Shown here: positions 4,770-40,652 of the stretch, piece by piece
How the letters are laid out: each line of letters starts with the position of its first letter
Numbering within the stretch: the stretch's first letter is position 1
DNA from: a virus
Lineage: Duplodnaviria; Heunggongvirae; Uroviricota; Caudoviricetes
Length of the DNA: 40,652 nt
Strand: one strand, 5' to 3'
Virus record (IMG/VR): IMGVR_UViG_2579778674_000010
Translations under genes and position numbers: made by a program
The notes under the pieces: model-generated
Databases searched by the model: none
Told to the model about the DNA's origin: nothing
The model's input: only the letters and a program-made list of their open reading frames with translations

Positions 4770-4783
4770 TTATTAAAACTCCT

Positions 4784-4814: not shown

Positions 4815-4934
4815 CAGGCGACATAATAGTAGATATAGCGATTACGAGGCCACGCAATGCTTTTCTCCAGGAGCATCATCGATTTAATTAAAGACACCAT
4901 CACATCTCTGTAACAGAGTGTACGTAATTAACAA

Positions 4935-5256
4935 CTACACACACTGCTCCTGAAAATACTGGTCATCCAGTGCAAAGATCACTGCTTCAAATTCATCGCG
5001 CTCAATCAATACCGGATGAGTGGCTAAATATTCATTTATCTCTGTCAGAGATAAAGGCAAAGGCACCCCAGCCATTCCAGCATAACGTCGGGCACGGGAT
5101 ATTACCGAATAGGCGTACAACAACTCCTTAAGCACCGGGTCTATTTCTGGTTCCGGTATCGGTGGCAACCTGAGTTTTTCTCGCTTCCATCTTGCCTTTT
5201 CCCCCCTTTCTCCCCCGAACTCCGATAACCACCGCTGGGCAGCTATGGCTTTTTTA
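4935..5256 (-). CDS. Tail assembly chaperone T-region, expressed as a G-T fusion by -1 frameshift
   Basis: The 77-aa track ORF frame stays open upstream (without an ATG) to the slippery heptamer A-AAA-AAG (minus strand, plus 5249..5255) at the end of the G ORF. Reading in -1 from there gives ...KKAIAAQRWLSEFGGERGEKARWKREKLRLPPIPEPEIDPV... Confidence 0.6.
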
Positions 5257-5704
5257 TCGTATCCTGCTTCTGCTGCTCTTTACCCTGGGCGATGCTGGCT
5301 GCTTCTGCAAGGATCTGCCAGTACAACTCTGGATTCTGCTTAAGCAGCGCGATCCCTCGTTCTGCCGTATATTCCAGTGCAACCTCAACACCATTAACCA
5401 GTTCACCAACCCCTTTCCAGTCTTTCAGCAGATAACGAGCGGCATTATCAATGAGTAAATCATCAACAGAATCCACCTCGGAAACCTTTGAAATATCAAA
5501 CTCCTTCGTTCCGACGTGCAAACTGGCATCCATTTTCTCAATGTGGCGACGGATTAATGCATTACGGGAGCGATACTGATCGTTATCGCTGCTTGCCACC
5601 AACAGTTTTAACCCGTCTACAGGTTTTAAGTCCTTCATTGGCGTAAACCAGCGTTCTCCACCAATGATAATTTTCTGATTAAGAATAAACATCCATAACC
5701 TCAT
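5243..5704 (-). CDS. Tail assembly chaperone G-like
   Basis: 153-aa acidic ORF immediately downstream of the major tail gene, ending ...DTIKKP-stop with the slippery site in its last codons. An alternative start at the second Met (5692) is possible. Confidence 0.7.
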   Translation of the reverse strand: MRLWMFILNQKIIIGGERWFTPMKDLKPVDGLKLLVASSDNDQYRSRNALIRRHIEKMDASLHVGTKEFDISKVSEVDSVDDLLIDNAARYLLKDWKGVGELVNGVEVALEYTAERGIALLKQNPELYWQILAEAASIAQGKEQQKQDTIKKP

Positions 5705-17094: not shown

Positions 17095-17878
17095 ATTCCT
17101 CCTCCTCACCACCATGCATGATCTCCACCATGCGCTGCGTCATCCGGACAAATCCATTTTCAATAGCCTGCTGATAATCAATGATCACCAGCGCCGACTC
17201 CTCGAAAAAACACTGAATTTCAGAGGGGGCGTGAGCGTAATAGTCCGCAATTCTGCTGAAATTAAACACCGTGTGACGTTCTGCCGCACACAGGAGGAAT
17301 TCCTCAATATCAGGCTCAAGGGACGCCGAACGTATCCGGCTGATCAGCTCCTGAGTTTTCGTATCGTCGTACAGTTCACTGATATCCGGTTTACCGCCCG
17401 ACGGCTCATAAACAGGCGTATCAATTTTCGTCGTATACGGCTCCTCCTCATTTCCTGTACCGGGCAAAACATCCGTCAACAGTTCATCAATTTCTGTCGG
17501 GATGAAGCCTGTCAGGGAGACATCAAAATCAGCATTGATTAGGTCCGACAGCTCCATCCGCAACAGATCTTCATCCCAGCCAGCATTCATCGGCAGGCGA
17601 TTATCTGCCAGGCGGTACGCCTTTTTCTGCTCATCCGTCAGGCCAGACAGAACAATGACCGGAACAGAATCCATTTTGAGCATTTCAGCCGCCATAACAC
17701 GACCGTGACCCGCAATAATTTCGCCCTTTTCGTCAATCAGCACCGGATTAGTCCAGCCGAATTGCTTAATACTTTCTACCAGTTGTGCCACCTGCTCAGG
17801 GCTGTGCGTCCTGGCGTTGTGCGCATACGGTGACAATTCTTGTAATGGGCGATAGACTATCTTTAATTTCTCGCTCAT
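17087..17878 (-). CDS. ParB-like nuclease domain protein
   Basis: 263-aa ORF with the ParB N-terminal domain signature (...NPVLIDEKGEIIAGHGRVMAA...). Lies upstream of the packaging genes. Probably the counterpart of the K-12 Rac gene ynaK. Confidence 0.75.
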   Translation of the reverse strand: MSEKLKIVYRPLQELSPYAHNARTHSPEQVAQLVESIKQFGWTNPVLIDEKGEIIAGHGRVMAAEMLKMDSVPVIVLSGLTDEQKKAYRLADNRLPMNAGWDEDLLRMELSDLINADFDVSLTGFIPTEIDELLTDVLPGTGNEEEPYTTKIDTPVYEPSGGKPDISELYDDTKTQELISRIRSASLEPDIEEFLLCAAERHTVFNFSRIADYYAHAPSEIQCFFEESALVIIDYQQAIENGFVRMTQRMVEIMHGGEEEEYA

Positions 17879-17892
17879 ACAGCCTTGCTTTA

Positions 17893-17929
17893 TGAATAAA
17901 ACGCACCCCAGCAGCCAGTGCTACTGGGG
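17893..17929 (-). terminator. Hairpin plus U-rich tract downstream of trkG
   Basis: Plus ccccag-(12 nt)-ctgggg at 17906..17929; minus-strand RNA has the hairpin followed by UGCGUUUUAUU. The loop is long, so strength is uncertain. Confidence 0.35.
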
Positions 17930-18015
17930 ACGGAGGGGTTGCTGGTAAAGTTAGGTATTGGATCAATGAGTGAGTCAACATAATATTAAACTCACAATTA
18001 TAAATCAGCCATATA

Positions 18016-19473
18016 TTAGGAGCGCCAAAAAAAACCTGAAAACAATATAATAACAGGATAAATTTCAAGGCGACCAAGAATCATAGCTATGCACATTAAA
18101 CATTTTGCAATGTCATTAAGCACTCCGAATGACGATGCAGTAGCCCCAAAACCTAATCCCATATTATTAATACATGCAGCCACTGTTGCAAATGATGTAA
18201 GAAAATCATATCCCATACCATTTAACACCAGTATAAAAAACACCGTGAAGAGAGTATAAAGAAAAAAGAAACTCCATACAGACCTCATTACACGATCTGT
18301 AACTATCTTCCCTCCTACATTTACACTCAACAACGCTCTGGGATGAGAAAGCTGATTTATCTCGTGTTTGCTTTGTTTGAAAAGTATAAGAAATCGAAGT
18401 GACTTAATTCCACCACAAGTTGAACCTATACATCCCCCAAAGAAACTTGACAACAGCAAAAACACTATCGTGTGCGTGGGCCAGTTTGCATAATCCTGCG
18501 TAGCTAAACCATTATCAGTGAGCATGGAGCTGGCAAGAAAAAACGAATGAATAAAACTTCCATGCAAGTCATACATACCTATATGCCAGACCTGGAAAGA
18601 GGTAACAATGATCACCCCTAAGGCTATTAACAGAAAGAAACGAAGTTCAATATCTCTGATTAAAGGTTTTATCGTTTTTCTGCTAATAACAATATACCAA
18701 AGAGTGAAGTTGAAAGCCGATAGCAGGGAAAAAGAACCAGCCACCAGCTCAACCAAATAGTTATTAAAATATCCGATACTCTCGCTATGAGTTGAGAAAC
18801 CACCAAGCGAAACTGTGGAAATCCCGTGACAAATAGCATCAAACAAAGGCATTCCTGCAAGTCTATAACAGACAATACAAGCAATACCTAATAAAGAATA
18901 AGTTATCCACAGTGTCCGTGACGTATCGGCCAGGCGGGGAGTGAGTTTGTCATCCTTAAATGGCCCCGGCATTTCTGACTGATAAAGCTTTGCACCACCA
19001 ATACCCAATAATGGCAATACTGCAACCGCCAGAACAATAACTCCTAAACCACCTATAAAATTTAACTGTGACCGATAGTACAAATATGCCCGAGGTAATG
19101 AACTAACATCATCAATTACAGTTGCTCCTGTTGTTGTTATTCCAGAAACCCCTTCAAACAGAGCATCAATGAACGTTAAATTAAGTTCTGAGTCAATCCA
19201 TAAAGGGAATGCACTAATAACAGAAAACAAAATCCAAAACATTACAATTATAATAAACCCATCACGGGTACGTAATTGAATGCCAGATTTCTTAGTTGTA
19301 TACCACGCTCCGCCACCAATGCAAAAAAATATAACGAAAGTTATAAAGAAAACGAACAGGCTTTTTTCTTTATAAAACAATGCTACAACCATTGGTGGCA
19401 ACATTGAAAGACTATAGAGCCAAACCAGGAACCCACACATATGAGTAACAACTCTTACATGAGATGTATTCAT
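18016..19473 (-). CDS. trkG: TrkG potassium uptake protein (TrkH family), prophage cargo
   Basis: Polytopic membrane protein. Sequence from MNTSHVRVVTHMCGFLVWLYSLSMLPP onward is recognised as the Rac-prophage TrkG of E. coli K-12; the track ORF has 6 extra N-terminal codons. Confidence 0.9.
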   Translation of the reverse strand: MNTSHVRVVTHMCGFLVWLYSLSMLPPMVVALFYKEKSLFVFFITFVIFFCIGGGAWYTTKKSGIQLRTRDGFIIIVMFWILFSVISAFPLWIDSELNLTFIDALFEGVSGITTTGATVIDDVSSLPRAYLYYRSQLNFIGGLGVIVLAVAVLPLLGIGGAKLYQSEMPGPFKDDKLTPRLADTSRTLWITYSLLGIACIVCYRLAGMPLFDAICHGISTVSLGGFSTHSESIGYFNNYLVELVAGSFSLLSAFNFTLWYIVISRKTIKPLIRDIELRFFLLIALGVIIVTSFQVWHIGMYDLHGSFIHSFFLASSMLTDNGLATQDYANWPTHTIVFLLLSSFFGGCIGSTCGGIKSLRFLILFKQSKHEINQLSHPRALLSVNVGGKIVTDRVMRSVWSFFFLYTLFTVFFILVLNGMGYDFLTSFATVAACINNMGLGFGATASSFGVLNDIAKCLMCIAMILGRLEIYPVIILFSGFFWRS

Positions 19474-19610
19474 ATCTAAATATTCTTTCAATTATAACCA
19501 CCTTGCTGCAATATTATGATTATACTGTATAAAATTTAACTCCTCTTAGATCTTACTTCACTGTTCCTTATGAAACAATCATCAAAATGAATCATATTGT
19601 AGTTAAGATT

Positions 19611-20075
19611 TTACTTTAAACACTGCTCGGTTATGTATTGCTGAGCACCTTCAAGTTGGGCCTGCATCATTACCAGTCGTTCCCGGAGGGTGAAATAATC
19701 CCGTTCAGCGGTGTCTGCCAGTCGGGGGGAGGCTGCATTATCCACGCCGGAGGCGGTGGTGGCTTCACGCACTGACTGACAGACTGCTTTGATGTGCAAC
19801 CGACGACGACCAGCGACAACATCATCACGCAGAGCATCATTTTCAGCTTTCGCATCAGCTAACTCCTTCGTGTATTTTGCATCGAGCGCAGCAACATCAC
19901 GCTGACGCATCTGCATGTCAGTAATTGCCGCGTTCGCCAGCTTCAGTTCTCTGGCATTTTTGTCGCGCTGGGCTTTGTAGGTAATGGCGTTATCACGGTA
20001 ATGATTAACAGCCCATGACAGGCAGACGACGATGCAGATAACCAGAGCGGAGATAATCGCGGTTACTCTGCTCAT
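19611..20075 (-). CDS. rzpR: Rz i-spanin
   Basis: 154-aa ORF with an N-terminal transmembrane segment and coiled-coil periplasmic domain; start overlaps the endolysin stop by 4 nt. Confidence 0.85.
19670..19855 (-). CDS. rzoR: Rz1 o-spanin lipoprotein, embedded in Rz in the +1 frame
   Basis: 61-aa ORF with a lipobox (LVVVGC) and a proline-rich mature region ([18 protein letters not shown]), lying entirely inside Rz. Confidence 0.8.
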
Positions 20076-24680: not shown

Positions 24681-25374
24681 AAATATATTGGTTCTACATT
24701 GACAGGAGACTTCAACCATAAGAAGTAATCTGAATACTTGAGCAATAAATTTACTTAAGATTAATGAGCGCACCTTGCCGGACAAAGATAAACCAAGGTA
24801 ACACCTTTTTTCTAGCCAGTATGTAATCAATCAGAAAGCCGCTCCATAAGAACAACAGCAAGACAATAAATTGCCATTACAGCCGCAATAGCCAGCGCAC
24901 ATTTGAGAACCAGCACGACAACCCCCTGTATTAGACGCACACCAGTCCTGATAAATATGAGGCTGTCTCGTCAGTGATTCAATACAACTATTGGGTATAG
25001 TTTCTGTGATTTTATTCTGTAGAAATGGAACACAACAACCAGTCACCACCAGCACTTCTTTAAATACGCCAAGTCCGACGCAAGCTAACCTTCTAGTCCG
25101 CTTTGAGCGAAAAGCGGACAGGAACATTCTGGTTAATAGATATCAATGCTAACAAAAAAGCTCCCGATGGAGATTTTGAAACCGCTTCCACATAATGAAA
25201 TAAAAGGATTTATTTCTGGTCATGCCCACACATTGACCACGTCGAAGTAAGTAGCTCCGCTTCGCGGAGTTACTTAAGATAATTTCTATGTAGTTCCATG
25301 CTATGATTTAATTTTCAAGTTACAAAATCTAAATCTACAAATGTCCATTTGGGTGTAAAATTACACAATCCTAT

Positions 25375-27700
<2,326 letters not shown>

Positions 27701-28001
27701 TTTAATTACCTTATATATCCAAACTCTTAATTTTCTCTTTTTTACCATAGGATTAATCCAAAATAAAGACCTTGTTGACTAAACCCTCATGTACAAAATG
27801 CACACTTACTCAAAAGGATCTGGAGGCAATCTCGACCTCCATGATTTAGTTCCTAGGGATAAGCAGAAATCTAGCACTGGATTAAAATTTAAAAATAATA
27901 ATCAATAGGTTATAATGGTTTTTATTCGCATCCATGGGATCTGCTGCTGCCCGCATGATGTTGGATGCGACGGCGCTGGCACGACCTCACCCGGTGAAAC
28001 G

Positions 28002-28448
28002 ATGAAACGCGAAAGGGTTGTTCTTCGGGAAGGTGCAGTTGGACTTTCAATCGATGACGTTGCAAAAGAGGCTGGCGTCAGTAAGGCAACGGTAATGTAC
28101 GATCATAAGTCAAAGCAAGATTTGCTCAGCGATCTCATCAGTCGCCTTATGCCAGTAGAGGAGGAACGTGTTCAGCAAGCGATAGCGGAAAGTAATAATA
28201 CCCCACATCCCGCACTCTATGGGCGAATTATTTCAGCCAGTAATGCTCTCAGTCATACTGAGAGAGCAGTAGTGCTGGCGGTCAGCGAATCGTTAACTAA
28301 CGATACGAATATCAGGGACACCATGCGTTCCTGCACAAACAAAGATTTGGATGAGATAAAAAGAGGACCAAAACCAGACGTTGCCGTCCTGGTATATTTG
28401 GCGTTATCTGGTATCTACTGCCAAGAATTTTTTGATTTTTACAAATGA
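28002..28448 (+). CDS. TetR/AcrR-like HTH protein, possibly truncated
   Basis: LSIDDVAKEAGVSKATVMYDHKSKQDLL resembles the TetR N-terminal HTH signature. Only about 148 aa from ATG 28002, shorter than typical TetR proteins. Divergent from the adjacent three-gene operon. The Cys-rich track extension from 27915 was not adopted. Confidence 0.4.
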   Translation: MKRERVVLREGAVGLSIDDVAKEAGVSKATVMYDHKSKQDLLSDLISRLMPVEEERVQQAIAESNNTPHPALYGRIISASNALSHTERAVVLAVSESLTNDTNIRDTMRSCTNKDLDEIKRGPKPDVAVLVYLALSGIYCQEFFDFYK

Positions 28449-28676
28449 TCTCCTGGCGAGCGAGATAAAATTATCGAAGGCATTCGCTGTTTGTATGAAT
28501 CATACCCTTACAAGTCTGAATAAATAATGTCTCCGGGAATGACATTTCATGTGCGACTAATTCGCGATATTCCTATACGTAAAGGTCCGCTTTTGGCACA
28601 AAGTGGACAACCACGCTAGCTCTACCCTGTGCCACAAAATGTCAATTTGCATCTGAACTAATGCACTTTAATCTCG

Positions 28677-29099
28677 TCACTTCAATAAATACCGAACATC
28701 CCCCTGATAAAACGACAATATGCGCTGCATAACTTCGCTCTTCCGGCACTCGCGACAGATTATGTTTAGGCGACTGTCGTAGCGACGTATTTCTCCGTCA
28801 GGTAACGACCAGATAAGGTCCGGATCAACCACAACCGGTTTCTTCAGCTTTGCCCTCGATAATTTTTTGCGGGCATTTTGCCAGTCTTTACGAGCCTGTT
28901 CAGACGGGAATAACCCGTAGCCAGAATTGTATACTTCGCCACTGGCAACCAGCTCTCTGGCCAGAACGCTCATCAGATATCTTGTTGCCCCAGTTTTAGC
29001 TTCCAGTTGTCGTAACGTCTCGCGACCGCTCAGACGTACAAGTTCAACAACCTGTCCTTTAATTTTTTCTCGCTCTTCTGGTGTAAATACTTTTGCCAT
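28677..29099 (-). CDS. Hypothetical phage protein
   Basis: Start taken at MAKVF (ATG 29099) preceded by GGAGG; the track start at 29114 is a TTG. Basic C-terminal region. Confidence 0.5.
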   Translation of the reverse strand: MAKVFTPEEREKIKGQVVELVRLSGRETLRQLEAKTGATRYLMSVLARELVASGEVYNSGYGLFPSEQARKDWQNARKKLSRAKLKKPVVVDPDLIWSLPDGEIRRYDSRLNIICRECRKSEVMQRILSFYQGDVRYLLK

Positions 29100-29114
29100 A
29101 GGTGCCTCCGGCAA

Positions 29115-29876
29115 TCACTTTTCCGATGCAACATGGCGGGAAGAATCAGTAATCTGTCGTACAATATCCCTGTGCTTGTTCAACTCACGCAGCGCGGCGC
29201 AGACACGCTCCCACTTCTGGACATGATTTTTCGCCCGACGCAGTTCGCGGTTTGCCATATGCAGTGATGGTAAAACCAAGTCATCCGCTCGCGTTTCAGT
29301 AAACGATGGCAGCGACTGCACAATGTCCGCCACAGTTTCTGTTTTAATATCTTCCTGTGTTGCAGCCTCCTGTACTGGTAACGCAACACCTGCGGTCTGA
29401 GGAAAGGCCTTACCATCAGTTTCCGCTACCGATGCTGCTTTCGGCTCTGCTGGTAAATTATCGCCCGGTATGCAGTAACGAAATTTACCGCCCTGATTTA
29501 CGCGAATCAGACGACCTTTGCTGATTGCCATTGCCAGCGTTGAAGCCACTTTGCGTGATGTGGTACCAAACAATGTAGCCAGCTCATCAGCCGTTTGTGG
29601 TCCTCGTTGTTCAATCGTCGCGGTTAAATCGCACTCTGAGATTTTCGCTACTGTTGCTGTGGTGATTTCTTCCGGCAGTTCTGCCTGCGCTGGCTGTTCC
29701 TGCTGAACATTGTTATCAGCCACACGCCAGGTGTACGCACTTTTATCAACAAAACCAGCCTTTTTCAGTTCCCATAGTTCGTTCAGCACTTCTTCACGAC
29801 TGATATCAAGTCGCGCAGCAAGTTCTATGGATGTGGCTTTTCCCATTGCTTTCAGTGCGTCAAAAACAGTCTCCAT
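29115..29876 (-). CDS. Hypothetical phage protein with N-terminal winged-helix-like domain
   Basis: Start taken at [43 protein letters not shown] (GGGAG ribosome-binding site); central acidic/Thr-rich linker. Lies downstream of the DnaC-like gene. Confidence 0.5.
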
Positions 29877-29898
29877 TAAATTTTTCTCCCGGTAAAAA

Positions 29899-30645
29899 TT
29901 ACTTCGCAATTCCTGGCTGGACGACATTCGGACGCCAGCTCTCCCAGTTAAAATTCACCCATCGCCCGCCGTTCATGGTCATGCGATCCATAATCCGCTC
30001 GCCGAGCAATGTTTTCATGGCCTCATAGTTCAGGTTTGTCAGCATCCCCACGCTGCGCATCGACGCTGTCCGGCGATCAACAATCTGGTGCAGTACCACC
30101 TGCTCGTTTTTCGTCTCGCGCTGAATGCCAATTTCATCAAGAACCAGCAGATCCACTTCGCACAGTTCCCGCAAAAATTTTTCGCCTGACTGCCCATCGT
30201 CATAGCTGGCGTGCAGGGCACTCATAACATCAGCCACGGTAACCACAATCACTGTCTGACCGTCTTTCAGCAGGCGATTCCCGATAGCTGCCGCTAAGTG
30301 GTTCTTCCCGGTACCAGGTTTTCCGCTGAACGCAAAATTTGTACACCCGGTCATCAGTTCATCAGCGATGGATTTCGCCTGACTCAACGCGTATCGCTGC
30401 CCTTCGTTCTGCACCTGGTAATTCGAAAACGAGCATTTGCGGTGCAATGGCTGGATGCCAGAGCGATTCAGAATTTTTTCCACCCGCAACTGACGATTCT
30501 GACGGTTGATCTCCTCACAACGTTTCTGGCCTTCGGAAAGTTGCCACTCGCGCCACTCCGCTACCGTCTTGAATGGCGCGGTTACATGTGACGGGGCCAG
30601 TCTGCGGATACGTTCAAGAACATCGCCTGTCGCAATATTTTTCAT
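29899..30645 (-). CDS. ydaV: DnaC-like replication (helicase loader) ATPase
   Basis: 248-aa ORF with Walker [18 protein letters not shown] and Walker B LLVLDEIG; recalled as Rac YdaV. Confidence 0.8.
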
Positions 30646-30651
30646 GGTCAG

Positions 30652-31509
30652 TTACCCCCTGAAGCCTGGCGGGATCGCACTATCCGGTAACGAGACGGTG
30701 TTAACCTGTCGGAGTAACGTCTCAGGTCGAACACCTTTCGGCGCGAACAAGCCCTGGTATTCATTGGCGATGCTGTGTCGAATCACCTGCTCAGGTGAAA
30801 AACCCTGCTGGCGGAATTTTTCCAGCTCCCGTATCGCCCCGTTAGCGCCCTGCTCCGTTCGAATCGGTTTTCGCAATGCCTGGCGAAATTCAACCCACTC
30901 ACGCCAAAGCGAGACAGAAATCCAGTTCGGCAAAGTAATATCCAGAGGGTCAAACTTTTTGACACCTCGATTCCCCCGGGGGGGATTTAGGGGGGGATCT
31001 GTTTTTAGATCTTTATCTGTATCTTTATTAGTTGCCTTTGTGTTGACATCATGTTCAAACACCACTTCAACATCTGTTTGAACACCTGTTAAATTTCTCT
31101 CTTGTTTTGTTTGAACATCTGCTTCCTTTCTGCTTCTTCTGGCCTGAACAGATGCTTTTCCTGCGGCTGATTTTTTGGTTAATTTTTCCCTGACTGATGC
31201 CAGATCTTCCTCAATCCGAAGATGCACCCATTCCTCGCCGTTATCGCAAAAAAACTCCTGCAAGGATGGTTCAACATCAGCCCATCGCTCGTTAGTCAGA
31301 CGGGCAATTTTTGCCAGCCTGTTTTTAGGTATTGGCTTTCCTGTTTGCCAGTAATTGAACATCAGCAACAAATACGCACCATGCTCCTCTGCTGACAAAT
31401 GCATGGTGTCAGCCAGGTAATCAGCTATGTACAGTTGCATGTATGGTAATGCGGCCATAATTGCCCCGTATGATGCTGCCCGGTGGCTTAGAATAAGCAC
31501 AAACAGCAT
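30652..31509 (-). CDS. ydaU: Replication initiation-associated protein (DUF1376-like)
   Basis: 285-aa ORF immediately upstream of the DnaC-like gene. The true start may be the internal MAALPYMQLYIADYL. Confidence 0.6.
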   Translation of the reverse strand: MLFVLILSHRAASYGAIMAALPYMQLYIADYLADTMHLSAEEHGAYLLLMFNYWQTGKPIPKNRLAKIARLTNERWADVEPSLQEFFCDNGEEWVHLRIEEDLASVREKLTKKSAAGKASVQARRSRKEADVQTKQERNLTGVQTDVEVVFEHDVNTKATNKDTDKDLKTDPPLNPPRGNRGVKKFDPLDITLPNWISVSLWREWVEFRQALRKPIRTEQGANGAIRELEKFRQQGFSPEQVIRHSIANEYQGLFAPKGVRPETLLRQVNTVSLPDSAIPPGFRG

Positions 31510-31521
31510 GGAAACTTTTGC

Positions 31522-31944
31522 TTAATGAACAATGACAGAATCGTCGGAAGAACCGCCGCCGCTGAAATGCGCTTTCCGGTAAACGGCTTGGACTGCATCA
31601 TCATGCGCATCAATTGCCGTACTTAACGCTTCCTGCGCCGCCAGTAATACACGGCGTTCCAGGGTATCGAAGATGCAGAGTCGGTGACGCAGCTCGCGCG
31701 GAAGGATTGCCAGAATTGCTGGGATCAGCTTCTGAATTTTTTCTCTTTGCGTTTTCGTTTCACCTTTCAACCAACGGTGATAGATATTCTGCTGATTGTT
31801 CCAGTCCTTGCCTGGAACCAGGGGCAATTCGCCGCCCCCCTGGCGCAGATATTCTTCAGTAATTGCATTGGCTACCCATGCCTGCCCTTTTTCGGCTGCT
31901 AGGGCAAACAACACTGATTCGATGTGCTCATGCTTGATTTTCAT
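31522..31944 (-). CDS. ydaT: YdaT (CII-like regulator / toxic protein of Rac)
   Basis: 140-aa ORF MKIKHEHIESVLFALAAEKGQAWVANAITEEYLRQGGGELP... recalled as Rac YdaT; second gene of the operon divergent from racR. Confidence 0.7.
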   Translation of the reverse strand: MKIKHEHIESVLFALAAEKGQAWVANAITEEYLRQGGGELPLVPGKDWNNQQNIYHRWLKGETKTQREKIQKLIPAILAILPRELRHRLCIFDTLERRVLLAAQEALSTAIDAHDDAVQAVYRKAHFSGGGSSDDSVIVH

Positions 31945-31966
31945 GAATCATTTGCCTCTTGATGTT

Positions 31967-32263
31967 TCAGGTATGATCAAATGAGGATTTGTTACTGTCA
32001 TTTAGTTGCTTCACTGACATATTCTGCGAACAACATGCCGAACGTCGTAAATATGACCAGTCAATATCAGGACGAAGTTCTTCGCACAGAACCTCACCTC
32101 TTGTTGCACGTTCAATTGCTGGACATCTCTCGGCAGGCAATTGACGTACCCCTTTGATCCATTGATTTACGCTTGGAGGTGATACACCTAAAAGCCTAGC
32201 CATTGCTGATTGCCCACCGACAACAGCACAAGCTTGCTTGAATGAATAGTTCTCTTTTTTCAT
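31967..32263 (-). CDS. ydaS: YdaS (Cro-like HTH protein)
   Basis: 98-aa ORF with an HTH segment (QSAMARLLGVSPPSVNQWIKG); first gene divergent from racR. Confidence 0.7.
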   Translation of the reverse strand: MKKENYSFKQACAVVGGQSAMARLLGVSPPSVNQWIKGVRQLPAERCPAIERATRGEVLCEELRPDIDWSYLRRSACCSQNMSVKQLNDSNKSSFDHT

Positions 32264-32386
32264 CGAATGAACTCCAAAAACACACAGAAATATTAGGCGA
32301 CGCCTAACGCAATTGTCAATAGGCTGTGCCTAATGCAGTAAGGGTAGGGATTGCCTAATGTAATGCGCATAGGAGAATATTAAGCA
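32264..32386. promoter_or_regulatory. Divergent racR / ydaS promoter-operator region
   Basis: Contains the perfect 15-bp palindrome TTAGGCGACGCCTAA (32293..32307) and further GCCTAAT repeats between two divergent HTH regulator genes. Confidence 0.5.
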
Positions 32387-32863
32387 ATGCTTAGTGGTAA
32401 AGACTTAGGCCGAGCGATAGAGCAGGCCATTAACAAAAAAATCGCATCGGGATCCGTCAAATCAAAGGCGGAGGTCGCACGCCACTTTAAAGTCCAACCA
32501 CCATCAATTTATGACTGGATTAAGAAAGGCTCTATAAGTAAAGATAAACTTCCAGAATTATGGCGTTTCTTTTCTGATGTTGTTGGTCCAGAGCATTGGG
32601 GGCTTAACGAATACCCCATACCAACCCCCACCAATTCAGATACAAAAAGTGAACTTTTAGATATAAACAACCTTTATCAAGCAGCCTCTGATGAAATAAG
32701 AGCGATTGTAGCTTTCCTGTTATCTGGAAATGCTACAGAACCAGATTGGGTTGACCACGATGTTCGCGCCTACATAGCAGCGATGGAAATGAAAGTGGGT
32801 AAGTATCTGAAAGCTCTTGAATCTGAACGGAAAAGCCAGAACATCACAAAAACTGGAACTTAA
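32387..32863 (+). CDS. racR: RacR prophage repressor
   Basis: 158-aa ORF MLSGKDLGRAIEQAINKKIASGSVKSKAEVARHFKVQPPSIYDWIKKG... recalled as Rac RacR; divergent from ydaS/ydaT. Confidence 0.85.
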   Translation: MLSGKDLGRAIEQAINKKIASGSVKSKAEVARHFKVQPPSIYDWIKKGSISKDKLPELWRFFSDVVGPEHWGLNEYPIPTPTNSDTKSELLDINNLYQAASDEIRAIVAFLLSGNATEPDWVDHDVRAYIAAMEMKVGKYLKALESERKSQNITKTGT

Positions 32864-32940
32864 ACTTATATGGTCTGACGGAAAACTCCTGGATTCCGTT
32901 ATTTAACCCCCCCATCACTTTCTGCTGTCGCCATCACCTA

Positions 32941-32996
32941 TTAGGTTACGCTCAAAACATTAGGCATAGCCTATTGACAATCAATTAGGCATTACC
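32941..32996. promoter_or_regulatory. Second cluster of TTAGGC-type operator-like repeats downstream of racR
   Basis: TTAGGCATAGCCTAT (32960..32974) and further TTAGG motifs. CCTATTGACAA (32970..32980) is the reverse complement of TTGTCAATAGG at 32313..32323. Confidence 0.3.
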
Positions 32997-33171
32997 TATA
33001 CTTCCAGCATACCACCCACCCCGCCCCACAGAACGCCGGGCAATACTTCGAGTTACCAGGCAGTGGTAAGGGGTTAAGTAGCCAGCCCGAGGCGTATGAA
33101 CATGACGGCGGGATTCAAATTTTGCAGTGCAGCAGTTAGTTCCGCCACCCGGCGTTAAGGGGAGAGATAAG

Positions 33172-33306
33172 ATGGTGCATTACGAAGTAGTTCAGTATTT
33201 GATGGATTGTTGCGGTATCACTTACAACCAGGCTGTGCAGGCTTTACGCAGCAACGACTGGGATCTCTGGCAGGCAGAAGTCGCTATACGTAGCAACAAG
33301 ATGTGA
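33172..33306 (+). CDS. ydaG: YdaG small protein (44 aa)
   Basis: Manual translation MVHYEVVQYLMDCCGITYNQAVQALRSNDWDLWQAEVAIRSNKM; GGAG ribosome-binding site upstream. Confidence 0.55.
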   Translation: MVHYEVVQYLMDCCGITYNQAVQALRSNDWDLWQAEVAIRSNKM

Positions 33307-33316
33307 GATTCGCAAA

Positions 33317-33472
33317 ATGCAAAAAATCGACCTCGGCAACAACGAATCCCTGGTGTGCGGCGTGTTCCCCAACCAGGATGGAACGTTCACTGCCATGACG
33401 TATACCAAAAGCAAAACATTTAAAACCGAAACTGGTGCGCGCCGATGGTTGGAGAAGCACACAGTAAGCTAA
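33317..33472 (+). CDS. ydaF: YdaF small protein (51 aa)
   Basis: Manual translation MQKIDLGNNESLVCGVFPNQDGTFTAMTYTKSKTFKTETGARRWLEKHTVS, directly after ydaG. Confidence 0.5.
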   Translation: MQKIDLGNNESLVCGVFPNQDGTFTAMTYTKSKTFKTETGARRWLEKHTVS

Positions 33473-33957
33473 CGATTAAAACGTCTACTCCTGCTGTTCC
33501 AGAATAACTTCATAAAATGGGAGTATTTTTCGGTGACGAGATAATAAGAACAGTTTGCGCTATCACTCTGATGTTGAATGATGCCCTTCCGTTCTAATTT
33601 TTTCATAACCGGGTTACGGCAAGGAGAAGTGATAATAAGATTTCCTGTTTTAAGGAAATCTTTAAATACAGCGATTTCTTTCTCAGATAAACGAAGCAAT
33701 ACTCGTTGCTCTGGTAGTAATGAATAATGCTTTTGAATATGTGCTCGCAATCTTGAGAAGGAAATGGCGACCACGAAAGAAAAGGCAAAAACGATAATCT
33801 GAAAGAGCCAAGGTATTTCAGTATAAGCATTGAATGCGACAGTAAACTCTTTCGGTATCAGCCAGAGAGTGAGACCAAAAATGATAATCGTATACATAAG
33901 TCTTTCGAGTGGCTCGTTAGCAAAAAGTTTCAACAATGGAGTAAATACATCCAACAT
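33469..33957 (-). CDS. sieB: SieB superinfection exclusion protein
   Basis: Start taken at MLDVFTPLLKLFANEPLERLMYTIIIFGLTLWLIPKEF..., recalled as Rac SieB (162 aa). The 41 extra N-terminal codons of the track ORF were not adopted. Confidence 0.85.
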   Translation of the reverse strand: MLDVFTPLLKLFANEPLERLMYTIIIFGLTLWLIPKEFTVAFNAYTEIPWLFQIIVFAFSFVVAISFSRLRAHIQKHYSLLPEQRVLLRLSEKEIAVFKDFLKTGNLIITSPCRNPVMKKLERKGIIQHQSDSANCSYYLVTEKYSHFMKLFWNSRSRRFNR

Positions 33958-34398
33958 ATCAATAACTCTCAACTGTAAGGGTATTGAAATGTTAACACAA
34001 GCTCTCGCTGTAGGGGTATAGCCGAGACCACCGAAGCCCGGAGGTGGTGAAATAAAACCGGGCACAACACGAAGGCGCATTTCCGATATCCATAAAGAGT
34101 CGGTCTTGTCTGTTAAATTTAAATGGTGGGAGTGCGCCTCCGGTTGTAAATAACGACATTGCTGTGTGTAGTCCTGGCGGCATCAGTTTTTTTCTTGAAG
34201 TTCGGCTGATGTCCGCCCTTTTTAAAGTGAATTTTGTGATGCGGTGAATGCGGCTAAGCGCACGTGGCACAGTTAAAAGTCATGTTAGTCCTTATTGGTT
34301 TGGGTGGGAAAGCCGACTGTAATTGTTAACTGGTTGCAGTCACCTGGAGGCACCAGACACCGCATCAACAAAGTTCATTTGTAAAAATGGAGATAATT

Positions 34399-34620
34399 AT
34401 GATTGCACATCACTTCGGAACTGATGAAATACCACGTCAGTGTGTGACTCCTGGCGATTATGTTCTTCATGAAGGCCGGACATATATTGCCTCGGCAAAC
34501 AATATTAAAAAGCGAAAACTATATATTCGTAACCTGACCACAAAAACATGCATTACTGACCGCATGATTAAAGTCTTCCTCGGTCGTGATGGTTTACCTG
34601 TAAAGGCGGAGTCATGGTGA
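34399..34620 (+). CDS. kilR: KilR cell-division (FtsZ) inhibitor
   Basis: [46 protein letters not shown]..., recalled as Rac KilR (73 aa). Confidence 0.85.
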
Positions 34621-34790
34621 TGACTAAGAAAATAAAATGTGCTTACCACCTTTGCAAAAAAGACGTTGAAGAAAGCAAAGCTATTGAAAGAATGCTTCAC
34701 TTCATGCACGGGATTTTATCAAAAGACGAACCGAGAAAATATTGCAGTGAAGCTTGTGCCGAAAAAGACCAGATGGCACATGAACTTTAA
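34620..34790 (+). CDS. ydaE: YdaE small Cys-rich (zinc-binding) protein
   Basis: Manual translation [56 protein letters not shown]; start overlaps the kilR stop. Confidence 0.7.
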   Translation: MTKKIKCAYHLCKKDVEESKAIERMLHFMHGILSKDEPRKYCSEACAEKDQMAHEL

Positions 34791-34864
34791 TTAATTGACT
34801 ATTCGAAACTGAATTTATGCCAGAAATGGCAGGTATTCGCTCAACCTTAATTAAGGAGAAAAAC

Positions 34865-35140
34865 ATGATTACCAATTATGAAGCCACTGTTGTAACTACC
34901 GATGACATTGTTCACGAGGTGAATCTGGAAGGAAAGCGCATTGGCTACGTAATTAAAACAGAAAATAAAGAAACCCCATTCACTGTGGTTGATATCGATG
35001 GTCCATCAGGCAACGTAAAAACACTTGATGAAGGTGTCAAAAAAATGTGCCTGGTGCATATCGGAAAGAATCTGCCCGCAGAAAAAAAAGCCGAATTTCT
35101 GGCAACTCTAATTGCAATGAAATTAAAAGGTGAAATCTGA
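34865..35140 (+). CDS. racC: RacC
   Basis: Start taken at MITNYEATVVTTDDIVHEVNLEGKRIGYVIK... with AAGGAGA upstream; recalled as Rac RacC (91 aa). Confidence 0.8.
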   Translation: MITNYEATVVTTDDIVHEVNLEGKRIGYVIKTENKETPFTVVDIDGPSGNVKTLDEGVKKMCLVHIGKNLPAEKKAEFLATLIAMKLKGEI

Positions 35141-35241
35141 AAGAAATAGCCTGCGTATGGCGCAGGCTATGAACAGTGTGTATCCGGCAAGATCATTCAC
35201 TGAACAAAACGAATTTTAATCTGAGTTGAGGTTAAAAAACA

Positions 35242-37842
35242 ATGAGCACAAAACCACTCTTCCTGTTACGGAAAGCGAAAAAATCATCCGGTGAACCTGA
35301 CGTCGTCCTGTGGGCAAGCAACGATTTTGAATCGACCTGTGCCACTCTGGACTACCTGATCGTTAAGTCAGGTAAAAAACTGAGCAGCTATTTTAAAGCT
35401 GTTGCCACGAATTTTCCTGTCGTTAATGACCTGCCCGCTGAAGGTGAGATCGATTTTACCTGGAGTGAACGCTATCAACTCAGCAAAGACTCCATGACAT
35501 GGGAACTAAAACCGGGAGCAGCACCAGACAACGCTCACTATCAAGGCAATACCAACGTCAACGGCGAAGACATGACTGAGATTGAGGAGAATATGCTACT
35601 CCCAATTTCTGGCCAGGAACTGCCCATTCGTTGGCTTGCTCAACACGGCAGCGAAAAACCGGTAACGCACGTTTCACGCGACGGACTCCAGGCATTACAC
35701 ATTGCTCGGGCTGAAGAACTACCGGCTGTTACTGCCCTGGCTGTTTCCCACAAAACCAGCCTGCTCGACCCACTGGAAATTCGCGAACTCCACAAACTGG
35801 TTCGTGACACTGACAAAGTTTTCCCTAATCCTGGTAATTCAAACCTGGGACTGATAACTGCTTTTTTCGAAGCATACCTGAACGCTGACTACACCGATCG
35901 AGGACTGCTGACAAAAGAGTGGATGAAGGGTAATCGTGTTTCACACATCACTCGCACGGCTTCCGGTGCTAATGCTGGCGGCGGAAACCTCACCGATCGC
36001 GGCGAAGGTTTCGTACACGATCTGACGTCACTGGCGCGCGACGTAGCCACTGGCGTACTGGCCCGTTCAATGGATCTGGACATCTATAACCTTCATCCGG
36101 CACACGCTAAACGCATTGAGGAAATTATCGCTGAAAATAAACCGCCCTTTTCTGTTTTCCGCGACAAATTCATCACCATGCCTGGCGGGCTGGATTATTC
36201 CCGCGCCATCGTGGTTGCGTCCGTAAAAGAAGCACCAATTGGGATCGAGGTCATCCCCGCGCACGTCACTGAATATCTGAACAAAGTACTGACTGAAACC
36301 GATCATGCCAACCCTGATCCGGAAATCGTGGATATTGCCTGCGGTCGCTCCTCTGCCCCGATGCCGCAGCGAGTAACAGAAGAAGGAAAACAGGATGATG
36401 AAGAAAAACCGCAACCATCTGGAACAACGGCAGTTGAACAGGGAGAGGCTGAAACAATGGAACCGGACGCAACTGAACATCATCAGGACACGCAGCCGCT
36501 GGATGCTCAGTCACAGGTAAATTCTGTTGATGCGAAATATCAGAAACTGCGGGCAGAACTCCATGAAGCCCGAAAAAACATTCCATCAAAAGATCCTGTC
36601 GATGCCGATAAATTGCTTGCTGCATCACGTGGTGAATTTGTTGACGGAATTAGCGACCCGAACGATCCGAAATGGGTAAAGGGGATCCAGACTCGCGATT
36701 CTGTGTACCAGAACCAGCCAGAAACGGAAATAATCAGCCCGGATGCGAAACAACCTGAGCCAGTAGTGCAACAGGAACAGGAAATAGTCTGCAATGCCTG
36801 CGGTCAGACTGGCGGGGATAACTGTCCTGACTGTGGTGCGGTGATGGGCGACGCAACATACCAGGAAACATTCGGTGAAGAGAATCAGGTTGAAGCTAAG
36901 GAAAAAGATCCGGAGGAAATGGAAGGCGCTGAACATCCGCACAATGAGAATGCTGGCAGCGATCCGCATCGCGATTGCAGTGATGAAACTGGCGAAGTCG
37001 CAGATCCCGTAATCGTAGAAGACATAGAACCCGGTATTTATTACGGAATTTCGAATGAGAATTACCACGCGGGTCCCGGTGTCAGTAAGTCTCAGCTCGA
37101 TGACATTGCTGATACTCCGGCACTGTATTTGTGGCGTAAAAATGCCCCCGTGGACACTACAAAGACAAAAACGCTCGATTTAGGAACCGCTTTCCACTGC
37201 CGGGTACTTGAACCGGAAGAATTTAGTAACCGCTTTATCGTAGCACCTGAATTTAACCGCCGTACAAACGCCGGAAAAGAAGAAGAGAAAGCGTTTCTGA
37301 TGGAATGCGCAAGCACAGGAAAAACGGTTATCACTGCGGAAGAAGGCCGGAAAATTGAACTCATGTATCAAAGCGTTATGGCTTTGCCGCTGGGGCAATG
37401 GCTTGTTGAAAGCGCCGGACACGCTGAATCATCAATTTACTGGGAAGATCCGGAAACAGGAATTTTGTGTCGGTGCCGTCCGGACAAAATTATTCCTGAA
37501 TTTCACTGGATCATGGACGTGAAAACCACAGCGGATATTCAACGATTCAAAACGTCTTATTACGACTACCGCTATCACGTTCAGGATGCATTCTACAGTG
37601 ACGGTTATGAAGCACAGTTTGGTGTGCAGCCAACTTTCGTTTTTCTGGTTGCCAGCACAACTGTTGAATGCGGACGTTATCCGGTTGAGATTTTCATGAT
37701 GGGCGAAGAAGCAAAACTGGCAGGCCAGCAGGAATATCACCGCAATCTGCGGACCCTGGCTGACTGCCTAAATACCGATGAATGGCCAGCTATTAAGACG
37801 TTATCACTGCCCCGCTGGGCTAAGGAGTATGCAAATGACTAA
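35242..37842 (+). CDS. recE: Exonuclease VIII (RecE)
   Basis: 866-aa [44 protein letters not shown]... recalled as Rac RecE; immediately followed by an overlapping recT. Confidence 0.95.
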
Positions 37843-38668
37843 GCAACCACCTATCGCAAAAGCCGATCTGCAAAAAACTCAGGGAAACCGTGCACCAGCA
37901 GCAGTTAACGATAAGGATGTGCTGTGCGTGATTAACAGCCCGGCAATGAAAGCGCAACTGGCAGCAGCTCTGCCACGTCACATGACAGCGGAACGCATGA
38001 TCCGCATTGCTACAACAGAAATCCGTAAAGTACCGGAACTAAGAAACTGTGACTCGACGAGTTTTATCGGTGCCATCGTACAGTGTTCACAGCTCGGACT
38101 TGAGCCAGGTAGCGCCCTCGGTCATGCATATCTGCTACCGTTCGGCAACGGAAAAGCAAAAAACGGTAAGAAGAACGTACAGCTGATCATCGGTTATCGC
38201 GGCATGATCGACCTTGCCCGTCGATCAGGTCAAATCATCAGTCTGTCAGCTCGTGTTGTCCGTGAATGTGATGAATTCAGCTATGAACTTGGCCTTGATG
38301 AAAAACTGGTTCATCGTCCCGGTGAAAACGAAGATGCCCCTATAACCCATGTCTATGCTGTTGCAAAACTGAAAGACGGAGGAGTGCAGTTTGAAGTCAT
38401 GACCCGCAAACAAGTAGAAAAAGTTCGCGACACACACAGCAAGGCGGCAAAAAACGCAGCGTCAAAAGGGGCGTCGTCCATCTGGGATGAACACTTTGAA
38501 GACATGGCCAAAAAGACAGTGATACGAAAACTGTTCAAGTATCTGCCGGTATCTATTGAAATCCAGCGTGCAGTATCGATGGATGGAAAAGAGGTGGAAA
38601 CAATTAATCCAGACGACATATCGGTTATAGCCGGGGAATACAGTGTAATCGATAATCCAGAAGAATAA
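37835..38668 (+). CDS. recT: RecT single-strand annealing protein
   Basis: Start taken at [18 protein letters not shown]..., which overlaps the recE stop (ATGACTAA); recalled as Rac RecT. Confidence 0.9.
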
Positions 38669-38712
38669 TCCAGCCTGGCGGTGTAATGCACCGCCAACGT
38701 GAGATAGTTTTT

Positions 38713-38919
38713 ATGACAAAAACTTTGAGATATGACGATGTTAAACCATGTCCGTTTTGTGGTTGTCCATCAGTAACGGTGAAAGACATTTCAGGATATT
38801 ACCGGGCAAAATGCAACGGATGCGAATCCCGAACTGGCTATGGTGGAAGTGAAAAAGAAGCGCTCGAAAGATGGAATAAACGAACCACTGAAAATATTAA
38901 TGGAGGCGTTCATGTATAA
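38713..38919 (+). CDS. ralR: RalR (Lar) restriction-alleviation protein
   Basis: Start taken at MTKTLRYDDVKPCPFCGCPSVTVKDISGYYRAKCNGCESRTGYGGSEKEALERWNKR... (Cys4 zinc-ribbon-like); position downstream of recT as in Rac. Confidence 0.75.
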   Translation: MTKTLRYDDVKPCPFCGCPSVTVKDISGYYRAKCNGCESRTGYGGSEKEALERWNKRTTENINGGVHV

Positions 38920-39100
38920 AATTACCGCTACAATTGAAAAGGAAGGTGGCACTCCTACTAACTGGACAAGATATTCAAAATCTAAACTAACGAAATCAGA
39001 ATGCGAAAAAATGCTCTCAGGTAAAAAAGAAGCAGGCGTTTCCAGAGAGCAGAAAGTAAAACTGATAAATTTTAATTGCGAGAAACTTCAGTCCTCGTGA
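38912..39100 (+). CDS. ydaC: YdaC (DUF1187) small protein
   Basis: Start taken at MYKITATIEKEGGTPTNWTRYSKSKLTKSECEKMLSGKKEAGVSREQKVKLINFN... with GGAGG upstream; overlaps the ralR 3-prime end. Confidence 0.7.
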   Translation: MYKITATIEKEGGTPTNWTRYSKSKLTKSECEKMLSGKKEAGVSREQKVKLINFNCEKLQSS

Positions 39101-39132
39101 ATTGCATTGTATTCAAATTAAAACTTCATAGC

Positions 39133-39148
39133 TGATTATTAATAATCA
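39133..39148. promoter_or_regulatory. Perfect 16-bp palindrome upstream of xisR
   Basis: TGATTATTAATAATCA is its own reverse complement; it lies 52 nt upstream of the xisR start codon in an AT-rich intergenic region. Confidence 0.3.
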
Positions 39149-39199
39149 ACATCAGGCGTCAATTTCAGTCTAACATTGGCGCCTGCCAGAGGTGATGCG

Positions 39200-39415
39200 A
39201 TGGCACAAGTAATCTTTAATGAAGAGTGGATGGTTGAATACGGCCTGATGCTTCGCACTGGTCTGGGGGCCAGACAAATTGAAGCATACCGCCAGAACTG
39301 TTGGGTGGAGGGCTTCCACTTCAAACGAGTATCTCCTTTAGGTAAGCCAGACAGCAAACGAGGGATTATCTGGTACAACTATCCAAAGATAAATCAGTTT
39401 ATCAAAGACTCATGA
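39200..39415 (+). CDS. xisR: Excisionase-like protein (XisR / YdaQ)
   Basis: Start taken at [54 protein letters not shown]... Immediately upstream of the integrase. Confidence 0.75.
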
Positions 39416-39416
39416 T

Positions 39417-40652
39417 ATGTCTAAATTACCAACAGGTGTCGAGATTAGAGGTAGAAACATTCGCATCTGGTTCATGTTTCGAGGAAAACGATGTCGGGAA
39501 ACATTAAAAGGCTGGGAGATTACAAACAGTAATATTAAAAAAGCCGGAAATTTAAGAGCGCTGATAGTTCATGAAATAAACTCCGGTGAATTTGAGTATT
39601 TAAGACGTTTTCCCCAGTCCAGCACTGGGGCAAAAATGGTGACAACGAGAGTCATAAAAACGTTCGGGGAGCTTTGTGATATCTGGACAAAAATTAAAGA
39701 GACAGAGTTAACAACAAACACAATGAAGAAAACGAAATCACAATTAAAAACACTCAGAATAATAATTTGTGAAAGTACCCCGATATCATATATTCGTTAT
39801 AGCGATATCTTAAACTACCGGAATGAACTGCTGCATGGAGAAACGCTTTACCTGGATAATCCAAGATCCAACAAAAAAGGAAGAACCGTGCGCACAGTTG
39901 ATAACTATATCGCCCTGCTCTGTTCGCTGTTACGTTTTGCGTATCAGTCGGGATTTATATCAACCAAACCATTTGAAGGAGTAAAAAAATTACAGCGAAA
40001 CAGAATAAAGCCTGACCCGTTATCTAAAACAGAATTCAATGCATTAATGGAAAGTGAAAAAGGACAGAGCCAAAACTTGTGGAAATTTGCCGTTTACTCC
40101 GGGCTTCGTCACGGGGAACTGGCAGCTCTGGCGTGGGAGGATGTGGATTTCGAGAAGGGAATTGTGAATGTCAGAAGAAACCTGACGATACTTGATATGT
40201 TCGGTCCCCCAAAAACAAATGCCGGGATCCGGACGGTAACATTACTACAGCCAGCTCTTGAAGCACTGAAGGAGCAATACAAACTGACCGGGCATCATCG
40301 CAAAAGCGAAATCACTTTTTATCATCGGGAGTACGGCAGAACCGAAAAGCAAAAACTGCATTTTGTTTTCATGCCCAGGATGTGTAACGGAAAACAGAAA
40401 CCTTATTACTCGGTAAGCAGTTTGGGTGCGAGATGGAATGCAGCAGTAAAACGTGCTGGTATTCGCCGCCGTAATCCGTACCATACGCGACATACTTTTG
40501 CCTGCTGGCTGTTGACGGCAGGAGCGAACCCGGCATTTATAGCCAGCCAGATGGGGCATGAAACTGCGCAGATGGTGTATGAAATTTACGGTATGTGGAT
40601 TGATGACATGAACGACGAACAGGTAGCTATGTTGAATGCGCGGTTATCGTAG
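39417..40652 (+). CDS. intR: Tyrosine-recombinase integrase (IntR)
   Basis: 411-aa ORF with tyrosine-recombinase C-terminal residues (R...HTRHTFACWLL...; Y near the end). Ends with TAG at the last base of the window, so the attachment site lies outside it. Confidence 0.9.
   Translation: MSKLPTGVEIRGRNIRIWFMFRGKRCRETLKGWEITNSNIKKAGNLRALIVHEINSGEFEYLRRFPQSSTGAKMVTTRVIKTFGELCDIWTKIKETELTTNTMKKTKSQLKTLRIIICESTPISYIRYSDILNYRNELLHGETLYLDNPRSNKKGRTVRTVDNYIALLCSLLRFAYQSGFISTKPFEGVKKLQRNRIKPDPLSKTEFNALMESEKGQSQNLWKFAVYSGLRHGELAALAWEDVDFEKGIVNVRRNLTILDMFGPPKTNAGIRTVTLLQPALEALKEQYKLTGHHRKSEITFYHREYGRTEKQKLHFVFMPRMCNGKQKPYYSVSSLGARWNAAVKRAGIRRRNPYHTRHTFACWLLTAGANPAFIASQMGHETAQMVYEIYGMWIDDMNDEQVAMLNARLS

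Follow-up and report, generated by a model that had tools for sequence, protein, structure and literature searches.

A predicted left operator–promoter unit downstream of racR in the immunity region of the Rac prophage

The DNA analysed here is a 40,652-nucleotide stretch of viral origin (Caudoviricetes; IMG/VR record IMGVR_UViG_2579778674_000010), called the window below, and the locus under study, a series of short inverted repeats around racR, lies in the immunity region of the Escherichia coli prophage Rac. As judged from open reading frames (ORFs) and Pfam matches, ydaT and ydaS lie on the minus strand and racR, coding for the repressor, on the plus strand (Table 1). Pfam gives only a weak HTH_17 match for RacR, and a search of its sequence against solved structures returned no hit. 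Beyond racR the gene order is ydaG, ydaF, sieB (on the opposite strand), kilR, ydaE, racC, recE, recT, ralR, xisR, and intR; in the RefSeq annotation of the K-12 copy all the genes corresponding to 33172–40628 are on the plus strand, sieB excepted. The repeats form two clusters, one between ydaS and racR and the other about 100 bp beyond the racR stop codon, and these are very probably the right and the left operator–promoter units of the Rac immunity module.

The upstream cluster, extending over 32293–32394, is the published, footprinted set of RacR operators serving the ydaST and racR promoters. In the intergenic region, which measures 123 bp, Krishnamurthi et al. (2017) described GCCTAA/TTAGGC repeats, and they observed three RacR complexes in electrophoretic mobility shift assays (EMSA) and enrichment of the region in chromatin immunoprecipitation (ChIP) with quantitative PCR (PMC5700373). 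Wisniewska et al. (2022) obtained a DNase I footprint of RacR, deduced the consensus T/ATAGGC-n3-GCCTAT/A, and pointed out an operator with a spacer overlapping the racR ATG (PMC9638921), and later work speaks of 'four inverted repeats' between ydaS and racR (PMC11014345). Work by others has established RacR as a repressor of PydaST that occupies the intergenic sites and controls its own expression. The perfect 6-3-6 palindrome listed in the initial annotation together with GCCTAAT repeats is TTAGGCGACGCCTAA, situated inside the RacR footprint region, and the GCCTAAT copies are found at 32328–32334 and 32353–32359. The three remaining sites depart from the palindrome at one to three positions, and the one spanning the racR start codon keeps its position, −7, in all distant homologues. 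A promoter scan of 32150–33350 returned two promoter-like sites only, the first of which is PydaST, the equivalent of PR, with the same hexamers as described experimentally (PMC11879457).

The second promoter-like site, TTGACA-17-TATACT, lies in the downstream cluster. It was the initial annotation that proposed a second operator set there, of which TTAGGCATAGCCTAT was to be a part; two RacR-type sites are indeed present, 25 bp apart, but the proposal was incomplete, since a full promoter–operator unit had been overlooked. Left-operator site 1, TTAGGCATAGCCTAT, is an exact fit to the footprint-derived consensus, and site 2, TTAGGCATTACCTAT, shows one departure from it, an A for G at 32994, a position which is itself variable among alleles. 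The two sites interlace with the hexamers just as the first two upstream sites do with PydaST, and the promoter is predicted to point away from racR, into ydaG, ydaF, kilR, recET, xis, and int. With high confidence, the sequence of the downstream unit can be read as an early-left promoter, the equivalent of PL, whose −35 and −10 hexamers would be occluded by two RacR operators. A full third left site, TTAGGTTACGCTCAA at 32941–32955, was considered and rejected, as it scores 8.9 bits with three mismatches, its right half varies, and it has no counterpart in distant homologues; the weak third element of Table 1 would be a half-site at most. The same segment contains the palindrome ACCTATTAGGT (32936–32946), composed of two outward-facing RacR-type half-sites sharing one T, which is kept among E. 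coli alleles and absent in distant homologues.

Table 1. Genes and regulatory features of the Rac immunity region (positions in the window; mismatches are counted against the perfect palindrome)
Feature	Position	Strand	Description	Basis
ydaT	31522–31944	−		ORFs, Pfam
ydaS	31967–32263	−	Cro-like, first gene of the rightward operon	Pfam YdaS_toxin 2.6e-31, P22_Cro 3.4e-9
PydaST, PR-equivalent promoter	32290–32319	−	TTGACA (32319–32314), 18-bp spacer, TAATAT (32295–32290)	promoter scan, 10/12
Right-operator site TTAGGCGACGCCTAA	32293–32307	.	perfect 6-3-6 palindrome, in PydaST spacer, overlaps first 3 nt of −10	
Right-operator site ATAGGCTGTGCCTAA	32319–32333	.	1 mismatch, abuts/overlaps PydaST −35	matches published operator consensus
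Right-operator site GTAGGGATTGCCTAA	32344–32358	.	2 mismatches, racR promoter region	17.7 bits
Right-operator site TTAAGCAATGCTTAG	32380–32394	.	3 mismatches, spans racR start codon	
racR	32387–32863	+	158-aa repressor, N-terminal helix-turn-helix (HTH), C-terminal oligomerisation domain	ORF, RefSeq of K-12 copy
Lone TTAGGC half-site	32405–32410	+	within racR	hexamer scan; mentioned in PMC9638921
Weak third element	32936–32955	.	left half TTAGGT (32941–32946) conserved, right half GCTCAA not conserved	
Left-operator site 1, TTAGGCATAGCCTAT	32960–32974	.	1 mismatch, final T is first T of −35	17.6 bits
Candidate early-left promoter (PL equivalent)	32974–33002	+	TTGACA, 17 bp, TATACT	11/12 matches
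Left-operator site 2, TTAGGCATTACCTAT	32985–32999	.	2 mismatches, in promoter spacer, final 3 nt are first 3 nt of −10	15.2 bits
Leader of leftward transcript	33005–33163	+	conserved, common to prophages of many immunity types	
ydaG	33172–33306	+	head of leftward operon, with ydaF	ORFs, RefSeq, Pfam UBA_4 and DUF1391 (ydaG and ydaF)
ydaF	33317–33472	+	head of leftward operon, with ydaG	as for ydaG

In the region 31900–33500 the window is one base apart from E. coli K-12. The lone difference, C for G at 33001, falls on position 5 of the predicted left −10, giving TATACT in place of TATAGT, which is the left −10 in 97 of the 99 fetched loci. In the collection searched, the best complete E. coli genome matches a 121-bp stretch of the window at 99.2%, and none matches it at 100%. 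A large effect of the change is not expected, because TATACT and TATAGT each match the −10 consensus at five of six positions.

The right and the left units are related by mirror symmetry. The 11-mer TTGTCAATAGG at 32313–32323, which the initial annotation had found to recur as its reverse complement at 32970–32980, does so exactly, and these are its sole two exact copies in the window. A 35-nt inverted repeat, the arms of which (32312–32346 and 32947–32981) are 83% complementary, has this 11-mer as its core, and the minus-strand reading of PydaST agrees at 23 of 24 bases with the plus-strand reading of the candidate left promoter over CATTAGGCAyAGCCTATTGACAAT. In each of the two promoters the mirrored 11-mer is thus the half-site CCTAT joined to the −35 hexamer TTGACA, and no separate element; its presence on both strands follows from the right and left units being mirror-image copies of one cassette.

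The TTAGGC-type repeats on the two sides of racR, located where the initial annotation had placed them, exceed chance expectation by far. Seven of the 12 TTAGGC hexamers of the 40.6-kb window are situated within 32293–32990, and, if two mismatches at most are allowed, the 15-mer TTAGGCNNNGCCTAA has five matches, each in one of the two clusters, against 1.38 expected. When a weight matrix trained on the four intergenic sites alone was scanned over the 40.6 kb, the sites at 32960 (17.6 bits) and 32985 (15.2 bits) ranked among the training sites and were the only non-training matches above 12 bits, the next score anywhere being 11.9 bits. Random sequences matched in length and dinucleotide composition (Markov-1, n = 300) gave on average 0.1 hits at the matrix threshold, and none of them held a pair spaced by 24–26 bp.

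The downstream repeats are also conserved. Among 59 distinct E. coli alleles, changes are confined to the linkers and to the central 3 nt of the sites, and the half-sites and promoter hexamers are invariant; this applies to the upstream palindrome TTAGGCGACGCCTAA as well, with its invariant half-sites and variable 3-nt spacer. The allele of O157:H7, ca. 87% identical, keeps every half-site with changed spacers (e.g., GAC to TTA and ATA to GTA), and the 30 bases directly upstream of its left unit are scrambled. Outside E. coli, RacR homologues from Mixta, Morganella, and Proteus are 57–62% identical, and those from Achromobacter and Pigmentiphaga show 75% identity across the N-terminal DNA-binding half. 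In all five genera two sites, spaced by exactly 25 bp, are found downstream of the repressor operon, in a kept register with TTGAC and a TAnnnT −10, with unrelated flanks and ORFs of the same strand following. In Pigmentiphaga, ca. 1.2 kb of other ORFs separate the repressor from the left unit, which may be likened to rexAB situated between the repressor and the left unit of lambda.

The RacR-like domain of Achromobacter (locus L012, 2501–3598) and Pigmentiphaga (locus L013, 2501–3406), which shows 75% identity across 77 aa, stands at the head of ORFs that are 365 and 301 aa long, respectively, and despite the longer ORFs the operator motif and both promoter architectures are as in Rac; by sequence, these proteins seem to have the same DNA-reading head and a different C-terminal part. 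In Klebsiella sp. R390 (locus L010, 2434–2977), a RacR homologue is accompanied by three right-side sites and no ydaS-like neighbour, and is followed by a 391-aa ORF.

The operators on the two sides change together with the repressor. A Rac-like prophage with 99% identical flanks and another repressor carries its own repeat, TGAAC-N-AGTACAT, with a 24-bp spacing at both positions. Moreover, 200 viral contigs fetched by means of a conserved stretch of the left leader fall into ca. 22 sequence clusters at the left-unit position, comprising ca. 13 clearly different immunity types, each with distinctive palindromes and, in matching register, a TTGACx or TTTACx hexamer, all upstream of the shared leader. 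Across the immunity types, homology to Rac resumes 5–10 nt past the −10. The left operators belong to an exchangeable immunity module, the boundary of which lies beyond them. One of the types is CP-933P, recognised by paaR2–paaA2–parE2, with PaaA2 matching PDB 3ZBE. Its left promoter, PL933P, was shown by Jurenas et al. to be active and to be repressed ca. 100-fold by PaaR2 and by YdaS (PMC8630535). Because PL933P occupies the same position, the Rac left unit is positionally orthologous to a validated PL. The OL/OR-like layout suggested in the initial annotation is thus supported by the statistics, by conservation in E. coli and in distant genera, by co-variation with immunity, and by the positional orthology with PL933P.

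Expression data from other laboratories concern the same genes. When RacR is lowered by the C.Csp231I protein or by CRISPR interference (CRISPRi), ydaF, ydaG, ydaE, racC, and kilR go up 40- to 70-fold, recE, recT, ralR, xisR, and intR also go up, and excision of Rac is triggered (PMC6765115, PMC11014345, bioRxiv 10.64898/2026.09.06.749655). Taking sequence, comparative data, and published transcriptomes together, we infer that the left unit is a RacR-repressed promoter, which would directly explain the derepression of the left arm and the excision of Rac at RacR shortage. As others have shown, RacR dimers bind 15-bp TTAGGC-N3-GCCTAA sites, four of which cover the divergent ydaST and racR promoters. 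In the mechanism proposed for the left unit, the same kind of site is used. The left promoter would start the operon running from ydaG through kilR and recET to int, and RacR would repress it from site 1, abutting the −35, and from site 2, filling the spacer and overlapping the −10. Transcription reading through from racR may also be blocked by RacR bound at the left sites, in addition to the Rho-dependent terminator inside racR, which limits read-through toward kilR (PMC4150792). This terminator and a RacR-repressed left promoter are mutually compatible controls.

RacR has an apparent mass of 151 kDa on size exclusion, corresponding to an octamer (PMC11014345). Given the reported octameric state of RacR and the adjacent pair of sites at each promoter, a lambda-like bridge is proposed, in which the octamer would link the PydaST site pair with the left-promoter pair and the looped ca. 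0.65 kb would contain racR; by analogy, such bridging of the left and right operators is plausible. The distances between left and right operators among the homologues are 641, 664, 679, 1260, and 2204 bp. With this variation from 0.64 to 2.2 kb no phasing argument is possible, and a conserved helical phasing of the left versus right sites is ruled out.

Several points weigh against a RacR-repressed left promoter or against the bridge. The accessible literature yielded neither binding, footprint, or ChIP data nor a mapped transcription start for the downstream site. On the left there is no proper third site, only the left half of the 32941 candidate being conserved, and the distant homologue in Klebsiella sp. 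has right-side sites without the left pair, this copy probably being a truncated or orphan remnant of the module. Derepression of the left arm could in principle reflect read-through from racR or an indirect effect, as the published RNA-seq does not separate direct from indirect effects. Finally, the authors who described the octamer place its four dimers on the four intergenic repeats and not in a loop (PMC11014345).

Of the other explanations, the one that survives best takes the downstream unit as real and has the Cro-like YdaS, alone or with RacR, as its main or additional regulator. Lambda Cro binds OL too, and Rac YdaS has a P22_Cro/HTH_3 domain. In CP-933P, YdaS represses PL933P as strongly as PaaR2 does, each ca. 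100-fold (PMC8630535). However, the downstream sites of Rac match the footprinted RacR consensus, and Rac YdaS has been reported as an anti-repressor showing no repression of racR (PMC9638921). We regard regulation by YdaS as possible rather than probable; it is compatible with repression by RacR and does not exclude it.

It is improbable that the downstream sites are auxiliary operators only, serving as a loop anchor or a read-through roadblock with no initiation there. The octameric state of RacR would suit such a role, and read-through control does matter at this locus, because the Rho-dependent terminator in racR limits transcription toward kilR (PMC4150792). Nevertheless, the sites are interlaced with a promoter matching the consensus at 11 of 12 positions, the hexamers of which stay in register across genera and immunity types, and the positional orthologue PL933P is an active promoter. 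Even less likely is the view of the cluster as a functionless remnant, left in a decaying prophage by an ancient duplication of the right operator: the Rac prophage of K-12 is defective and the two cassettes are clearly homologous, but half-sites and hexamers are invariant amid varying neighbours in the 59 alleles, the architecture is found with unrelated flanks in five other genera, and the genes downstream respond to the RacR level. Chance similarity, or palindromes acting as RNA hairpins or terminators (a simple scan flags two minus-strand terminator-like hairpins, 32308–32292 and 32973–32961), can be practically dismissed, since a comparable site pair appeared in 0 of 300 random sequences, the stems have just 5–7 pairs with 3-nt loops, fixed arms with a variable centre fit the half-site contacts of a protein dimer, and the upstream copies are footprinted by RacR; on the grounds of stem length and variation pattern, intrinsic terminators are ruled out.

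RacR-controlled left and right units would make the Rac immunity region a standard lambdoid one, not a new kind of system, and its upstream half is already published. As in OL/PL and OR/PR/PRM of lambda, the repressor gene stands between two operator sets, with adjacent dimer sites overlapping each early promoter, and the promoters diverge into early-right (Cro-like, CII-like) and early-left (kil, recombination, xis, int) genes. RacR, like CI, is reported to be an octamer, and in both systems the operators are part of an exchangeable immunity module. The centre-to-centre spacing of the sites is 25–26 bp in Rac and 23–24 bp in lambda. The systems differ in operator size (15 bp, 6-3-6, in Rac versus 17 bp in lambda), in the number of sites (four right and two strong left versus three and three), and in the separation of the operator sets (ca. 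0.65 kb versus ca. 2.3 kb). No N gene or nutL was recognised in Rac, the left transcript of which opens with a different, conserved leader. There is no detectable sequence relation between RacR and CI, and the C-terminal domain of RacR has a different fold from that of CI, with no LexA-like cleavage domain (PMC11014345).

CP-933P of E. coli O157:H7 has the same prophage chassis: ydaT and ydaS diverge from the repressor gene, and the left promoter lies directly upstream of the same leader. As in Rac, the left and right promoters of CP-933P share similar −35 and −10 elements, and the repressor is octameric (PMC8630535). CP-933P differs in having another repressor with 18-bp palindromic operators (consensus GTTTAGTAA), and the toxin–antitoxin pair paaA2–parE2 between the repressor and the left promoter. 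Its left promoter is known from binding and reporter data, whereas the Rac counterpart is predicted from sequence.

The leader that follows the left promoter is a conserved island. It is matched at 80–90% by 2311 E. coli records, none with an annotated feature there, and is shared by the ca. 13 immunity types, with mosaic junctions just after the −10 and downstream, where the first genes differ. A search for a leader RNA family of the nut or put type gave no Rfam match at E up to 1, the region 32200–34300 yielding a DicF-like match only. The folding z-score of the leader is −1.64. RNAalifold applied to 90 distinct copies found no compensatory changes, so that a structure is neither supported nor excluded. 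The 5′ end is C-rich and G-poor (ACCACCCACCCCGCCCCACAG), resembling a Rho-loading site. A short ORF (33102–33158, plus strand) lies within the leader, with its start at a conserved ATGACGGC; in the K-12 type it codes for the 18-aa peptide MTAGFKFCSAAVSSATRR, and in most other prophage types (loci L100, L109, and others) it is in frame with ydaF (DUF1391), giving products of 76–78 aa. Variants of this ORF with 3-nt indels (NFNNY versus NFNY) hint at coding constraint. A joint reading, in which the octamer bridges the PydaST and left pairs rather than the four intergenic repeats and the leader is an undescribed cis-element controlling elongation into kilR/recET, is tentative, and we find it rather doubtful that both parts hold; if true, it would amount to an unusually short lambda-type loop setting the tightness of the switch.

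Other features of the region were noted as well. Past the racR stop codon, an 8-bp hairpin at 32876–32901 on the plus strand (GACGGAAA...UUCCGUU...) is followed by UAUUU, and in the O157:H7 allele the 8-bp stem is kept by means of different bases (ACGGGAA.../...UUCCCGU); with z-scores of only −1.6 and −1.2, the hairpin is possibly a weak terminator of racR. The DicF-like RNA (34163–34218, plus strand) is situated between sieB and kilR and matches Rfam RF00039 with 39.1 bits (gathering score 48) and E = 1.8e-6. It ends in a terminal hairpin with a U tract, has a folding z-score of −2.7, and lies just upstream of the division inhibitor gene kilR in the leftward operon, as does dicF before dicB in Qin. 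Taken as a whole, the window does not represent K-12 DNA, since collinearity with MG1655 is confined to 29427–38412 (98.4% identity). Window segments 1–29426 and 38413–40652 show no collinearity with K-12, and the K-12 segments 25240–26999 and 26998–29428 (in coordinates of locus L217) match window positions 3835–5594 and 17625–20055, respectively. The late region is therefore rearranged, or more complete, with respect to the K-12 Rac remnant.

The upstream half of the present finding corresponds to the published RacR operators, with an identical consensus (PMC5700373, PMC9638921, PMC11014345). Those papers confine binding to the intergenic region and the racR start, saying nothing on downstream sites or a promoter there; the published EMSA and footprint fragments cover −186 to +85 from the racR start, 'ydaG' occurs 0 times in PMC9638921, and the RacR regulon, ydaFG included, is described as uncharacterised in detail (PMC11014345). 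The RacR papers of 2017–2026 contain no account of a Rac left operator or promoter or of genome-wide RacR binding, an earlier description being possible, and the downstream sites and promoter are not mentioned in the 2025 YdaT paper, the 2026 CRISPRi preprint, or Jobling's letter. The Rac left unit is apparently undescribed in the accessible literature, though older accounts may exist.

What is gained is annotation and a testable model, as the layout has already been demonstrated in the sister prophage CP-933P. In practice, constructs with the racR–ydaS intergenic region alone would be missing half of the operator system. The left unit offers a testable correction to the picture in which RacR is restricted to the intergenic region, with its octamer on four repeats, and an alternative reading of that octamer. 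It would complete the immunity map of Rac, the cryptic prophage studied best in E. coli K-12, and it bears on a question left open by recent papers, namely why the loss of RacR activates the whole left arm, with the FtsZ inhibitor gene kilR, recET, xis, and int.

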